64,000 nt of DNA. It comes from Eledone cirrhosa (Eukaryota). The notes below the pieces were generated by a model. That model made no database searches, was not told the origin of the DNA, and was given only the letters and a program-made list of their open reading frames with translations. The stretch covers positions 202,554,001-202,618,000 of the forward strand of contig OZ024743.1 in assembly GCA_964016885.1 (NCBI GenBank), read 5' to 3'. The first letter of the stretch is position 1; every line of letters starts with the position of its first letter. A program made the position numbers and the translations under genes. This document shows positions 20,725-37,918 of the stretch, piece by piece.

Positions 20725-21342
20725 GAAAAGTGTAATTTACTACACAAAACGAAGGTTATAGAGAAAATTGAGGTTGGTAATGGCACATGGAATATATAAG
20801 AGACAGAATACTTTTTTGCGAAAAAACATATAATTTTATAAGGTAAGGAAATAATAAAGGGTATAAAAAATGACCGGTTTCGATGGGTTTGCAAAAGCCA
20901 TCTTTTCAAATGTTGATTAATATTAAGAAAAATTAATAATAATAAGAGTTAAAATTTGAGATTTGAAAATTCAAGTATAAAATTCATTGTGGGATTTCAT
21001 AGTAGTTTTCATCTTGGTAGCCGCAAGTTGACTGCTGTGTGCCTTTCTGCCTACCAGAAAGGCACACAGCAGTCAACTTGCGGCTACCAAGATGAAAACT
21101 ACTATGAAATCCCACAATGAATTTTATACTTGAATTTTCAAATCTCAAATTTTAACTCTTCTTATTATTAATTTTTCTTAATATTAATCAACATTTGAAA
21201 AGATGGCTTTTGCAGACCCATCGAAACCGGTCATTTTTTATACCCTTTATTATTTCCTTACCTTATAAAATTATGTTTTTTCACAAAAAAGTATTCTGTC
21301 TCTTATATATTCCATGTGCCATTACCAACCTCAATTTTCTCT
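20725..21342. mobile_element. Palindromic non-coding element 1 (arms ~20760-21049 and 21055-21342) between TA/TC microsatellites; Penelope pLTR-like
   Basis: Near-perfect ~290-bp inverted repeat with 5-nt spacer CCTAC; each arm carries a hammerhead-like motif. Confidence 0.9.
21190..21237 (+). ncRNA. Minimal type I hammerhead ribozyme-like motif, U3-A8 variant (mirror copy 20867-20914 on minus)
   Basis: UUGAAAA, stem II GAUGG/CCAUC, GAAA, palindromic helix III A-CCGG-U, GUC site; stem I imperfect (AACAU/AUUUU). Confidence 0.6.
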
Positions 21343-21680
21343 CTCTCTCTCTCTCTCTCTATATATATATATATATATATATACATTTATATATATATAT
21401 ATATATATTATTATTATTATTATTATATATATATATATATATATATATATATATATATATATATATATATATTATATACATATATTGACAGTCGATTGAT
21501 TTTCCGTGAGAATGGGATAGAGGAAACAAAGTCTTCATTGTGCTTTCCAATTGCTAATACTATCTATCAGTCGCAAATCCAGGTAAAAGTAGCAACGTGA
21601 AATAAGTTGTCTTGTTGAGGGAAACAAGTTTGTGTATATAGTATATATATATATATATATATATATATATATACATACAT

Positions 21681-21898
21681 ATAAGAAAAGAGTTACGACC
21701 CCGATGGCTGAGCTCCGGTCCTTTCGGTTGCTAGATCCGACAGCTAGATTCGACAGCTAGTACGGATCTAGCTGTCTAAACGGCAGGAGCTCAGCCGTTT
21801 TGGTCTAACACTTTTCCTATTACCCACTCTACTACCCTAATTCTCGAGTACTCTGGTACGTTATAGTCCACCGTGTTCCTTACCACACTTTCTTTGTT
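21681..21898 (+). repeat. Hairpin-headed repeat family (GACCCCGAYGGCTGAGCTC...GAGCTCAGCCGTCGGGGTC) in (TA)n
   Basis: Imperfect palindrome 21681-21820 plus a unique tail also seen inverted at 30636-30680. Confidence 0.7.
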
Positions 21899-22372
21899 AT
21901 ATATGTATATATATATTCATATATATATATATAATACGCGCGCACACACACACACACACACACATATATATATATATATATATATATACGTGTGATGAAT
22001 TAACTATTTATCATGAAAGCAAACATATTATCCTATGCACGATGAAAATAACAAACTGGTTTTATATTTATTTATGTCTTTACAGCGAAGTAGATTACTC
22101 AAATTTGTAGGTAGGTTTGCATTAAATGCGTAATAGACTTTGTAATACATGGCGTGTTCTGTATATCAGCACGAGAAATAATCTATAGTCTTTACAGTTA
22201 AGTGTATCTTAGATTTTAACACATAGACACATATACACAGGTACTCTCCCACAAACCCCATATATATATATATATATATATATATAGTTAGAAATGTAAG
22301 GGAAACGCAAACATAAGACAATTCCTGTGTTTCCCATACATTTCTAAACACTCTTTATTAGTAACCACACGG

Positions 22373-22486
22373 TGGAGTTCAAATGCCGCCAAGGTTAACT
22401 TTGCCATTCATCCTTACGGGGTCGATAAAATAAAGTACCAGTAACACACTGGGATAATTGCTGGCCTTGTGCCAAAAGAAGAAACG
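22373..22486 (+). mobile_element. 5'-truncated SINE with 16-bp TSD
   Basis: TSD ATTAGTAACCACACGG at 22357-22372 and 22487-22502; family core sequence. Confidence 0.88.
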
Positions 22487-23454
22487 ATTAGTAACCACAC
22501 GGCACCCTGTCCCGTTTCATTCTTATGTGTATATATATACACACACAAATATATATATATATATATATATATATACGACATGCACCGTAGCATTGAGAAC
22601 GCTTAACATAACTACATAAACTTACATGAATTACCCATGTATTACATTTGGAATAACGTTTCACATCACTATATTTGCTGTTTTATTCACATTTGTAGAC
22701 ACCAAGCTCGTAAGGTAATTTAGGTCTTTCTTGTATATATATATATATATATATATATATATATATATATATATATATGTTAGTTGTATATCTCGCTAAG
22801 CTTCTTCAAAAGTGTATAATGCGTATATGAGTGAGCAAAAATAATAACAAAAGAAATCAACACTATTCCAAATCCGAGGAATTTTATTAAAGAATTTGGT
22901 ACGAAATTACCTAGTTCCATCAAACTAATATAATTCACATCTAACAGTCGATACAGCTACAGTTTAACAACCAAGAACATGCAGATGTCTCCAAGAAAGA
23001 TTGATTTATCGAGCTGCTTCGTCTAAGACACATGGTAACCTAATTGAAATATCCACTTGTCTTGAAACATACAAAGAGCCAAATCAGATGTAATTTCCTA
23101 AAAAATATTTCAGACAAGCAACGGAAAGGAAGTTTACATACAATATATGTGTCGCAATAACACGAGATTAGTGGGTGTATATTGAAAGCTATTGACGCAT
23201 AAATAATAGACCTTACACACATAAACATGCGCATACATACACACAAACACACACACAAACATATATATATAAATATATATATATACATACATATACATGT
23301 ATATATATATATATAATATATATATATATATACAGAGAAATAGACACACATGCACACACATACACACACACACATATATATGTATATATATATGTATATA
23401 TATATATATATATATATATATATATATATATATATATATATATATATATATATA

Positions 23455-35518: not shown

Positions 35519-35710
35519 TAATTAGAAAGTAAACAACACAATATACAACTACTCCATTACCAAAGGTTTCAGGACCGTAGACAATATTAATATGCGCCTA
35601 GATCGTTCATCAGATAGGAACTATCTAGACGCATATTATTGATATTGGCTAGGGTCCAGAAACTGTGGGTAATGGAGTGGTTATATATTGTGTTGTTCAG
35701 TTTCTAATTA
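35519..35710. mobile_element. Old imperfect palindromic element 4 next to (TA)n
   Basis: Diverged ~95-bp arms around axis 35612 (ATC-A-GAT); decayed TTGATA..TGG/CCA-GAAAC motif. Confidence 0.65.
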
Positions 35711-35732
35711 TATATATATATATATATATATA

Positions 35733-36849
35733 CAGGGGTTGGACAAAATAATGGAAACACCTTAACATTTCAAACAAATTTATTTTAACATGGGGTAGGA
35801 CGGCCTTTGGCAGTAATTACAACTTGAATTCTACGCGGTATGGACTTCTACAAAGATTGAATTGTTTCAAAAGGAATTTTTGTCCATGCTTCAGCTAAAA
35901 CAGTCTCCAGTTCTTGTAGTGGTGATGGTGGAGGATATCGACTCCTTACTTGTTTTTCTAAAATGCACCATAAATGTTCAATAGTATTGAGATCTGGGGA
36001 CTGCGGTGGCCAGATAAGATATTCAACATCATTAGAATGTTCCTCGTGCTATTCAGTAACAACTTTAGCTGTATGAATTGGTGAATTATCATCCTGAAAG
36101 ATTGCGTTTCCCTCCGTAAACAGTTCCACAGCCATAGCATGAATTTGATCAGGTAAAATGCTTAAATAGTCTTGACTATTAATTCTGCCATGAAGGGAAA
36201 CCATTGGGCCGGCGGATTTCCAAGATATAATCCCCCAGATCATCACAGATCTTCCTCCATGTTTAACAGTTGGAAGAAGGCAGTCTGGGTCAAATTCTTC
36301 TTTCTCCACACGTATACTCGGTCGGTGGTCGGAAATAAGGTAAAAGATGACTCATCCGAGAAAATAACATTCTTCCACTGCTCTAGGGACCAATTCTGTA
36401 GGTTTTTACTCCACTCTAAACGATTGCAACGTTTGGTTTTGAAAGTAGTGGTTTTCTGATTGCAGCCCTCCCGTGAAAGTTTTGGTTTTCTTCCGGAGTT
36501 TTGTTTCGGCGAGGAGGTTTTTCCCTATTTCTCAAAGGCTGTCATTACTTTCGAGACAGTACTTCTTGATACACCAAACATTTCGGCTGTTTTCGTTACG
36601 CTAGCGCCTGCCATACGAGCACCAACAATTTGATCTCTTTGAAAGTCCAATAGATCTGTCATTTTAATGAATTTTAATTACCTTTTTCTGATGATATCTG
36701 AAAAGAAACAGCAATTTTAACAAAACATATTAAGCAACACTAATAATAAATAAGAAAACATAAAAATAAACAAGCTTTTGACGGTTTTATAGATATCAAA
36801 ATTATGATGCACTGATGCTAGGTGTTTCCATTATTTTGTCCAACCCCTG
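35733..36849 (-). mobile_element. Tc1-family DNA transposon, defective (internal deletion), inserted in (TA)n
   Basis: Perfect TIRs CAGGGGTTGGACAAAATAATGGAAACACCT with TA flanks; transposase motifs FSDESSF, TVKHGG, FQDDNSPIH, WPPQSPDLNTIE. Confidence 0.93.
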
Positions 36850-37130
36850 TATATATATATATATATATATATGAACTTTTCTTAATTAATTATAAAAATA
36901 ATGAAAAAAGGGCACATCTAGCTGTATAAGAAGGTAAAGGAATATGTATATCGTTTATCGTTCTACGTGTATATATATGTATATATATATATATATATAT
37001 ATATATAAATTAATAAAATAATTAATAAACAAAGAAACAGTTCCTTATATTTAAAAAAATGCATCATTTTACGATCGTTTCTAGGATATATATGATTTCA
37101 CTACATATATATATATATATATATATATAT

Positions 37131-37918
37131 ATGAAAGACGTAAAATAAGAAAATTTAAAAAATTAAAAATTAACTTACTTACTAACATTTTCACTCCAAC
37201 TAATTAGTTTCTGTAAGGGGATAAATATAGTTACGTAAGATAACTATAGAGAATTCCTTACATCATCAGGGAGTCTATTCTCAGCTAAGTTCCCAGGCAA
37301 TGCGCGGACACTAGGAACGCATATAAAAATAAATAATTCAGTGGATGGAACAAAGCTAGCGGGGACTAAATTCCAAAGCACTGAAAAATTTCACTGCCTC
37401 TCAGGTCAGTGGCAGATTCTAAAGGATCAATCACGTGACACTGAGGTTAATCAGTGAGGAGTGGGGTGGTATTATGACAATAGCCTACTACTACCATGAA
37501 TCACAGCAGTAAATTTGTCAAGTTTTACTCAACAAATAATTTGGAGATAAATATAGAGAATTAGTATATCTACCAACATATGTATACAGATGTATACTCA
37601 TGCTAGAAAATATATATGTCATGTCTTAGTACCTTTGTGGTTCTATACAGGGGGATGCAGAACAATTATATGAAAGACGTAAAATAAGAAAATTAAAAAA
37701 ATTAAAAATTAATTTACTTACTAAAATTTTCACTCCAGGAGTGAAAATTTTAGTAAGTAAGTTAATTTTTAATTTTTAAAAAGTTCTTATTTTACGTCTT
37801 TCATATAATTTCTCTGCATCCCCCTGCATAGAACCACATTGGTACTAAGACATAACATATATATTTGCTAGCATGAGTATACATCTGTATACATATGTTG
37901 GTAGATATACTAATTCTA
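37131..37918 (-). mobile_element. Retrozyme/pLTR-like element 3: 539-bp unit, direct terminal repeat and inverted 5' arm, in (TA)n
   Basis: Direct repeat 37131-37197 vs 37670-37736; palindrome arms ~37557-37736 and 37738-37918 around a 1-nt axis at 37737; hammerhead at 37193-37274. Confidence 0.88.
37193..37274 (-). ncRNA. Type I hammerhead ribozyme with canonical core
   Basis: Minus strand reads ACUCC-CUGAUGA-UGUAAGG...CCUUACA-GAAA-CUAAUUAG-UU-GGAGU; stems I and II pair perfectly, helix III palindromic; predicted cleavage between 37198 and 37197. Confidence 0.85.

Follow-up and report, generated by a model that had tools for sequence, protein, structure and literature searches.

The 64,000-nucleotide (nt) stretch of Eledone cirrhosa DNA analysed here (assembly GCA_964016885.1, contig OZ024743.1, positions 202,554,001 to 202,618,000 of the forward strand), referred to below as the window, carries four head-to-head palindromes associated with hammerhead ribozyme motifs. 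They had been picked out in a sequence-only reading and are named E1 to E4, while E5 to E8 denote further loci found in the same window. Comparison of the whole window with itself by BLAST gave 10 closely spaced inverted matches, of which E1 to E4 are the four strongest. Their parts are listed here by window position.

20725..20759, minus strand: E1 tail of 35 nt, on one arm only, ending in (TA)n
20760..21049, minus strand: E1 left arm, hammerhead core from 20909, predicted cut after 20872
21055..21342, plus strand: E1 right arm, ending in (CT)n(TA)n with 4-nt microhomology
21195-21232, plus strand: U3-A8 minimal hammerhead of the E1 right arm, helix I of 2 bp, helix II of 5 bp, helix III palindromic
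23455..23608, minus strand: E2 short arm with a U3-A8 hammerhead (23567->23538), ending in (TA)n with 4-nt microhomology
23610..23838, plus strand: E2 long arm with a 62-nt tail (23777-23838)
23651-23680, plus strand: hammerhead of the E2 long arm, helix I of 4 bp, helix II of 4 bp, helix III palindromic
35457..35620, minus strand: E3 long arm with a 62-nt tail (35457-35518) ending in (CA)n
35613->35607, minus strand: core of the degenerate but complete E3 hammerhead, straddling the centre, predicted cut after 35558
35618..35710, plus strand: E3 short arm, ending in (TA)n
37132..37197, minus strand: E4 3' repeat of 66 nt, from the predicted cut site to the (TA)n junction, with 5-nt microhomology
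37193..37274, minus strand: E4 hammerhead (37269->37198), predicted cut between 37198 and 37197
37198..37736, minus strand: E4 unit of 539 nt without an open reading frame (ORF), its first base (37736) being the first base after the predicted cut
37738..37917, plus strand: E4 inverted arm, corresponding to the unit's initial 180 nt (66-nt repeat plus 114-nt tail), ending in (TA)n

Alignment of the arms showed 285 identical positions, 3 mismatches and 2 gaps around a 5-nt spacer (21050-21054) in E1, and 154 identical positions, no mismatches and a 13-nt difference in poly(A) length around a 1-nt centre (23609) in E2. The corresponding values were 78 identical positions, 12 mismatches and 3 gaps in E3 (1-nt centre, 35612), and 168 identical positions, 12 mismatches and no gaps in E4 (1-nt centre, 37737). 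BLAST comparisons between the elements returned short AT-rich matches only (best E value about 0.01), so that E1 to E4 are mutually unrelated. The self-comparison, the arm alignments and the cross-element searches thus bear out the earlier description of four palindromes of unrelated sequence, and all four indeed have their arms joined at the 5' ends. A head-to-head inverted, 5'-truncated copy is present in 4 of 4 of these elements and also in E5, E6 and E7. E3 had been taken to start at 35519; the palindrome is there, but the element spans 35457-35710. One longer arm, previously claimed for at least three elements, is actually found in all four, with one-sided tails of 35, 62, 62 and 114 nt in E1 to E4, respectively. 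When E5 to E7 are included, 7 of 7 elements carry such an extension (35 nt in E1 and 61-114 nt in the other six). A direct repeat comparable to a pseudo-long terminal repeat (pLTR) is absent from E1, E2 and E3.

All eight ends of E1 to E4 lie within 1 nt of a dinucleotide run, the E3 tail ending in (CA)n, compared with a background of 4.8% of 27,112 positions that lie within 10 nt of such a run. This supports the proposed microsatellite targeting and the view that the elements run into microsatellites at their ends, although the test is partly circular in that the ends were placed where unique sequence stops. The short end shares 4, 4, 2, 5 and 3 nt of microhomology with the microsatellite in the five elements measured. 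E1 is flanked on both sides by a (CT)n(TA)n compound repeat, which would be compatible with a target duplication.

The elements are also non-coding, as had been stated. The longest ATG-started frames comprise 29, 35, 16 and 34 amino acids in E1 to E4, respectively, and a Pfam scan of 127 stop-free frames from the regions of the window outside long interspersed nuclear elements (LINEs) found no domain of Penelope-like elements (PLEs). Pfam searches with 13 + 127 frames of the window returned LINE reverse transcriptase (RT)/endonuclease, Tc1-type and weak matches only.

Motifs resembling a type I minimal hammerhead occur near the 3' ends of E1 to E4, in strict form in E2 and E4, in loose form in E1 and in degenerate form in E3. 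A motif descriptor, composed after the motifs had been seen, was run on the window, and hammerheads exceeded the shuffle expectation. In its strict form it gave 3 matches at 2 loci (both arms of E2, and E4), against a mean of 0.07 and a maximum of 2 in 100 shuffles. A looser form that demanded a palindromic helix III gave 6 matches at 4 loci (two in E1, two in E2, one in E4 and one at 17408), against a mean of 0.04 and a maximum of 1 in shuffles. Rfam gave no match at its gathering threshold, and at the E-value level the hammerhead family was absent among 111 matches. The microRNA (miRNA) matches from Rfam lay below threshold and were rejected as generic hairpin or microsatellite matches. E1 and E2 have a U3-A8 core in both arms with the sense pointing outward, their cores being 286 nt (E1) and 84 nt (E2) apart on opposite strands. 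The E4 hammerhead has a helix I of 5 bp, a C3-G8 core, a helix II of 7 bp with a long extension, a palindromic helix III and U at position 17 (fold z -3.43). The assertion that three elements carry clear minimal hammerheads with a palindromic helix III therefore stands for E2 and E4, whereas E1 matches only loosely, with a helix I of only 2 bp; the E3 hammerhead turned out to be degenerate, and its helix III is not palindromic. An outward ribozyme sense applies to E1, E2 and E3. The single hammerhead of E4 lies outside the palindrome.

Folding predictions separate these motifs further. A dimeric hammerhead with extended helix III is the minimum-energy cofold for E2 and E4, but not for E1. Read-through transcripts of E1 and E2 are predicted to form near-perfect hairpins (-471 and -257 kcal/mol, respectively) in which the pairing probability of helix II is 0; hairpin and ribozyme would therefore be mutually exclusive in E1 and E2. 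In contrast, the E4 hammerhead is predicted to stay folded in a read-through transcript (0.90-1.0). The long double-stranded RNA hairpins that had been envisaged are thus predicted only if the loci are read through, and the E1 and E2 ribozymes are then predicted not to fold.

What is known of PLEs, as given in the accessible parts of the papers cited here, matches this anatomy. PLE insertions are 5'-truncated, often have at their 5' end an inverted copy, also 5'-truncated, and at one end a tail of 30-40 bp, carry a hammerhead in the pLTR and show a bias for insertion into (TA)n (PMC8557442). In the Hydra clade, which is present in an octopus (PMC8557442), 26 of 27 families insert in (TA)n, all with canonical hammerheads, 10 of 26 hammerhead rows have U at the cut, and one member, Penelope-13_HM, combines an inverted 5' copy with hammerheads on both strands (PMC8557442 supplement). 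Palindromes at head-to-head junctions and an optional tail on one inverted pLTR have been described, with self-priming proposed, as has the capture of non-coding sequence between two direct pLTRs and its movement in trans (PMC3846280). Metazoan PLEs include minimal hammerheads, among them a U3-A8 variant, with palindromic helix III; pairs of hammerheads that lie on opposite strands at a distance of about 100-700 bp have been read as truncated PLEs (PMC4209133). A curation guide counts pLTR inversion and short 3' extensions among the routine features of PLEs (PMC8969392).

The palindromes resemble 5'-truncated endonuclease-bearing (EN+) PLE insertions in their inverted copy, one-sided tail, 3' hammerhead, microsatellite target and unclear target duplications (PMC8557442; PMC3846280), and E4 additionally shows two direct repeats with non-coding sequence between them and one inverted copy, as in EN+ PLE insertions (PMC3846280). 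Unlike published EN+ PLE insertions, however, the whole insertions here measure only 130-790 nt and have no ORF. Compared by eye with the Hydra rows, E4 and E3/E5 share the (TA)n target, the C3-G8 hammerhead, a self-complementary helix III of 3-4 bp and U or A at the cut. E1 and E2 differ from that clade, as none of its 26 hammerhead rows in the accessible part of the supplement has a U3-A8 core; in their U3-A8 covariation, palindromic helix III, short helix I and opposite-strand pairing they are instead like the minimal hammerheads of PMC4209133, whose accessible text does not describe the pairs as tailed palindromes in microsatellites. The hammerheads of E3, E4 and E5 thus look like those of the (TA)n-targeting Hydra clade and those of E1 and E2 like another lineage, these clade labels being inferred. 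A Naiad origin was rejected: Naiad PLEs lack a canonical hammerhead, E1 to E4 carry hammerhead motifs, and none of 3 short motifs matched an octopus Naiad consensus (PMC8557442 supplement).

We conclude, with good though not complete confidence, that the palindromes are insertion products of endonuclease-bearing PLEs from several families, with the mirror arm probably built during insertion. This assignment draws on structure, and the anatomical match to published PLE insertions speaks for the suggested link to PLE pLTRs. The additional claim of a distinct class of non-autonomous palindromic elements was not sustained, each feature having already been described as a signature of PLE insertion; most likely, the palindromes are further examples of this described type. 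E1 to E3 and E5 to E7 are most likely 5'-truncated stumps that were dead on arrival. E1 to E3 are too short (arms of 100-330 nt) to tell whether their source was autonomous.

Four further loci, one of which (E5) is a relative of E3 that had been overlooked, bear on how the arms arose.

29866..29999, short arm on the minus strand and tail arm on the plus strand: E5
30599..30789, no strand assigned: E6, head-to-head palindrome with a tail of about 78 nt, centre in a hairpin, possible hammerhead 3' half
21683..21897, no strand assigned: E7, of the E6 family, with a tail of about 77 nt and a centre with extra 13-nt repeats
29769..29818, plus strand: E8, of the E6/E7 family, a lone arm with a (TA)n run on either side

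E3 and E5 are members of one family, with tails that are 75% identical over 65 nt and a hammerhead 3' half common to both. The E3 arms resemble each other (49 of 57 positions) more than they do the E5 short arm (38 of 53 and 36 of 55). The short arm of E5 carries the hammerhead 3' half and reaches about 50 nt upstream of the short-end site, whereas its tail arm starts only 12 nt upstream of that site and ends in (CA)n, so that neither arm is nested in the other. E3 and E5 are thus inverted at different points, so that insertion probably creates the palindrome, which would then not itself be the mobile unit, as far as can be judged from sequence. In this family the tails (at 35457 and 29999) close with (CA)n, beyond which (TA)n follows, and the short ends abut (TA)n with no (CA)n in between; the (CA)n may be element-derived or may have been added during priming. 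For E6 to E8 a ribozyme remnant is only possible, because the descriptor for the hammerhead 3' half is loose (11 matches in the window, 2 of them in this family). Just left of E8, a possible decayed element with a tail-like hairpin ends in (TA)n (29640-29752). This locus, E8 and E5 are each separated by (TA)n, which suggests repeated insertion into one microsatellite. A small imperfect palindrome at 22287-22360, which starts from a (TA)n run and has a one-sided extension, is possibly another stump.

The following sequence of events would account for these structures. A PLE RT-endonuclease would nick both strands of a (TA)n-type target, and the two free 3' ends would serve as primers for reverse transcription from internal positions of the element RNA. 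One would start at 2-5 nt of microhomology with the microsatellite, the other 35-114 nt further in the 3' direction, which would generate the tail. Both complementary DNAs (cDNAs) would extend toward the RNA 5' end, and their ends would then be linked head to head, with 1-5 extra nt or a short natural hairpin in between. Cleavage and extension of both strands and the two internal RT starts are taken from in vitro work on one Poseidon element, PAc, whose PLE protein cleaves both strands at AT-rich sites, extends each of them and begins reverse transcription at two internal positions that delimit the tail (PMC11167929). The elements described here have an AT-rich target like PAc and would also be like it in that two RT starts give a tail and both strands are extended (PMC11167929).

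Joining of two separately primed cDNAs is the step for which we have a modest preference. The alternative retains the PLE origin, but lets a single cDNA (or an antisense template) prime its own second strand by folding back at a short hairpin, with the end of the tail set by endonuclease resolution. Such fold-back has been proposed in PMC3846280 and, for the tail, in PMC8557442. It would fit the co-terminal arms of E1 and E2, the hairpin centres of E6 and E7 with the reiterated 13-mers of E7, and the centre of E3, which is a mini-palindrome within the hammerhead core where the arms overlap. On the other hand, the 1-nt centres of E2 and E4 are too tight for a priming loop unless trimmed later, and extension in vitro takes place on both strands and from two start sites (PMC11167929). 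The non-nested arms of E5 favour two primers over one fold-back copy, unless the E5 centre was later deleted. Fold-back therefore appears a serious but less likely route, an estimate that concerns the mechanism within a PLE origin.

Several observations weigh against a PLE origin with the mirror arm built at insertion. No PLE RT or GIY-YIG sequence was found in or beside any element in the Pfam search of the window frames, although this would be expected for truncated or non-autonomous copies. In six of the seven elements the tails (61-114 nt) exceed the published 30-40 bp. A Hydra-like tail hairpin motif, which represents our own reading of three published Hydra consensus ends, gave 4 strict matches against a mean of 0.81, a number reached in 7 of 200 shuffles, and in relaxed form 20 matches against 20.8 in shuffles. 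Moreover, E6 and E7 have nearly the same centre, and in the comparison of their four arms 3 sites group the arms by element and 2 by role. Lastly, even in isolation the E1 hammerhead is not expected to fold correctly (helix II probability about 0.1).

E4 differs from the other elements in extent, being the only one among E1 to E4 that shows a complete ORF-less unit. On the minus strand, the 539-nt unit has one hammerhead at its end, after which its first 66 nt are repeated, so that E4 amounts to 1.12 unit lengths (direct repeat 37132-37197 / 37671-37736, 539 nt apart) with a GC content of 0.32. The inverted arm has no hammerhead and likewise begins at the predicted cut site. In both arms the initial base is the one that immediately follows the predicted scissile bond (±1 nt), and a single base lies between the arms. 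If truncation were uniform, about 3 positions in 539 would give this outcome by chance; E4 is the sole element long enough for this comparison, which makes it the one applicable case (n=1). We found no report of PLE junctions at the cut site in the searched literature, which omits most subscription papers.

The simplest reading of this junction is that E4 was templated by a linear RNA cut at the upstream, but not the downstream, hammerhead. The full ORF-less unit would then have moved in trans, on a template that probably began at the hammerhead cut. With less than even confidence, we regard E4 as the fossil of an RNA of retrozyme size that encoded no protein and was cleaved a single time by its hammerhead, copied by a PLE enzyme from both nicks in (TA)n and sealed head to head at the cut end. 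Hammerhead cleavage in vivo is here inferred. In vitro, cleavage was dispensable and RNA ends at the cut were not seen (PMC11167929), so that E4, with its junction at the predicted cut, is unlike PAc in this respect; the in vivo role of PLE hammerheads is described as not known (PMC8557442; PMC7761336). Alternatively, the RT could have stalled at the folded three-way junction, a fold-back through helix I could have lost its loop afterward, transcription could have started at that site, or E4 could be a one-off internal deletion of a longer element.

E4 also invites comparison with non-long terminal repeat retrozymes, which are defined as tandem units with at least two hammerheads and for which a PLE origin has been argued (PMC7229834; 10.64898/2026.07.22.740005; PMC7761336); retrozyme families measure 51-972 bp (10.64898/2026.07.22.740005). 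E4 could then be a classical retrozyme copied from circular RNA as more-than-unit-length cDNA, and the other elements similar fragments. The E4 unit is AT-rich, ORF-less and within this size range, spans more than one unit length and, alone among the elements, has a type I hammerhead at the repeat junction; moreover, retrozymes are argued to derive from PLE pLTRs (10.64898/2026.07.22.740005). However, retrozymes are head-to-tail tandems with at least two complete hammerheads, whereas E4 has a single one next to an inverted arm and a tail, which are PLE signatures. Its helices II and III depart from the canonical 6/4-bp form, no tandem array is present in the window, and the hammerhead pairs of E1 and E2 are inverted. 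A circular template is further disfavoured because a circle offers no cause for copying to end at the cut site, which is where the two E4 arms begin. We consider a retrozyme copied from a circle doubtful for E4, which may nevertheless be both a retrozyme and a PLE insertion, the two being compatible.

It is improbable that the palindromes constitute a class of their own, of non-autonomous ribozyme elements moving as complete palindromes, in the manner of miniature inverted-repeat transposable elements (MITEs) or as hairpin RNA. The absence of ORFs, the almost identical centres of E6 and E7 and the 2 of 5 informative sites that group their arms by role would agree with such a class. E1 to E4 are mutually unrelated, though, E3 and E5 invert at different points, E8 has a single arm, helix II of E1 and E2 is predicted not to form in a palindromic transcript, and every feature has already been described for PLE insertions. 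Elements with terminal inverted repeats, including MITEs, were rejected as candidates: the ends are asymmetric owing to the tail, and the palindrome makes up the entire element. Fold-back chimeras or assembly artefacts, for which only the identity of the E2 arms outside the poly(A) run might speak, are very unlikely, given that the arms differ at 3 (E1), 12 (E3) and 12 (E4) sites, that one-sided tails are homologous between separate loci (E3/E5 and E6/E7) and that the ends coincide with microsatellites.

TA-flanked tailed palindromes of this kind should therefore be annotated as PLE stumps, and not as MITEs, miRNA hairpins or a new type of element. Their value lies in the natural data that they provide on the insertion mechanism, and non-nested arms like those of E5 could separate the two-primer from the fold-back models. 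The E4 junction makes an in vivo role of the hammerhead testable by counting junctions in a genome. If the 5' junctions of the E4 family cluster at the scissile bond genome-wide, PLE hammerheads would cleave in vivo and define the template's 5' end, as ribozymes do for R2. In that case, retrozyme-like units would be moved by PLE machinery from linear, not circular, RNA.

Beyond the palindromes, a further minimal hammerhead lies at 17345-17420 on the minus strand (core at 17408), with a palindromic helix III, a weak helix I and a fold z of -2.88; it ends near an (ATT)n run, and no inverted arm was seen. A degenerate hammerhead-like core at 24020-24082 (minus strand) has no hammerhead fold (z +1.19). 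In E1, helix II opens with an ATG (21203-21205) that precedes the predicted cut by about 29 nt and whose frame closes after 21 codons; an ATG at the helix II start of the hammerhead has likewise been reported for the PAc ORF start (PMC11167929). Searches outside the window gave 2 matches to the E2 hammerhead pattern in metagenome contigs, the one inspected lying inside a bacterial ORF and being a chance match, and none to the E4 pattern in viral contigs. Among sequencing runs compared with 20725-24130, 3 from one sample shared about 0.6 of its words and may be the source of the window, and no RNA run was listed.

The (TA)n to the right of E3 holds a Tc1/mariner-type transposon (35733-36849) with terminal inverted repeats of about 30 nt, a DDE_3 match and a broken ORF, and an internally deleted relative lies at 33888-34449. 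The window as a whole is rich in microsatellites, LINE copies in (AAT)n and Tc1-type transposons, and also holds a dispersed repeat family that we take to be SINE-like (resembling short interspersed nuclear elements). Its six copies are 75-90% identical (22375-22497, beside the small palindrome at 22287-22360, 31656-31729, 38192-38371, 39364-39512, 40163-40355 and 62582-62741). Broken transposase-like frames without a Pfam match occupy 61262-62220. Nested LINE clusters bounded by (AAT)n are found at 1-17250 and, mirrored in the opposite orientation, at 41950-57400; they include an RT ORF of 1141 amino acids (52132-55557) and a 3776-nt pair that is 99% identical. Lastly, small dispersed repeats are located beside microsatellites at 24727-24880, 30324-30479 and 31033-31058, as are two repeat pairs (30200-30298 with 58675-58793, and 25991-26037 with 29511-29557).

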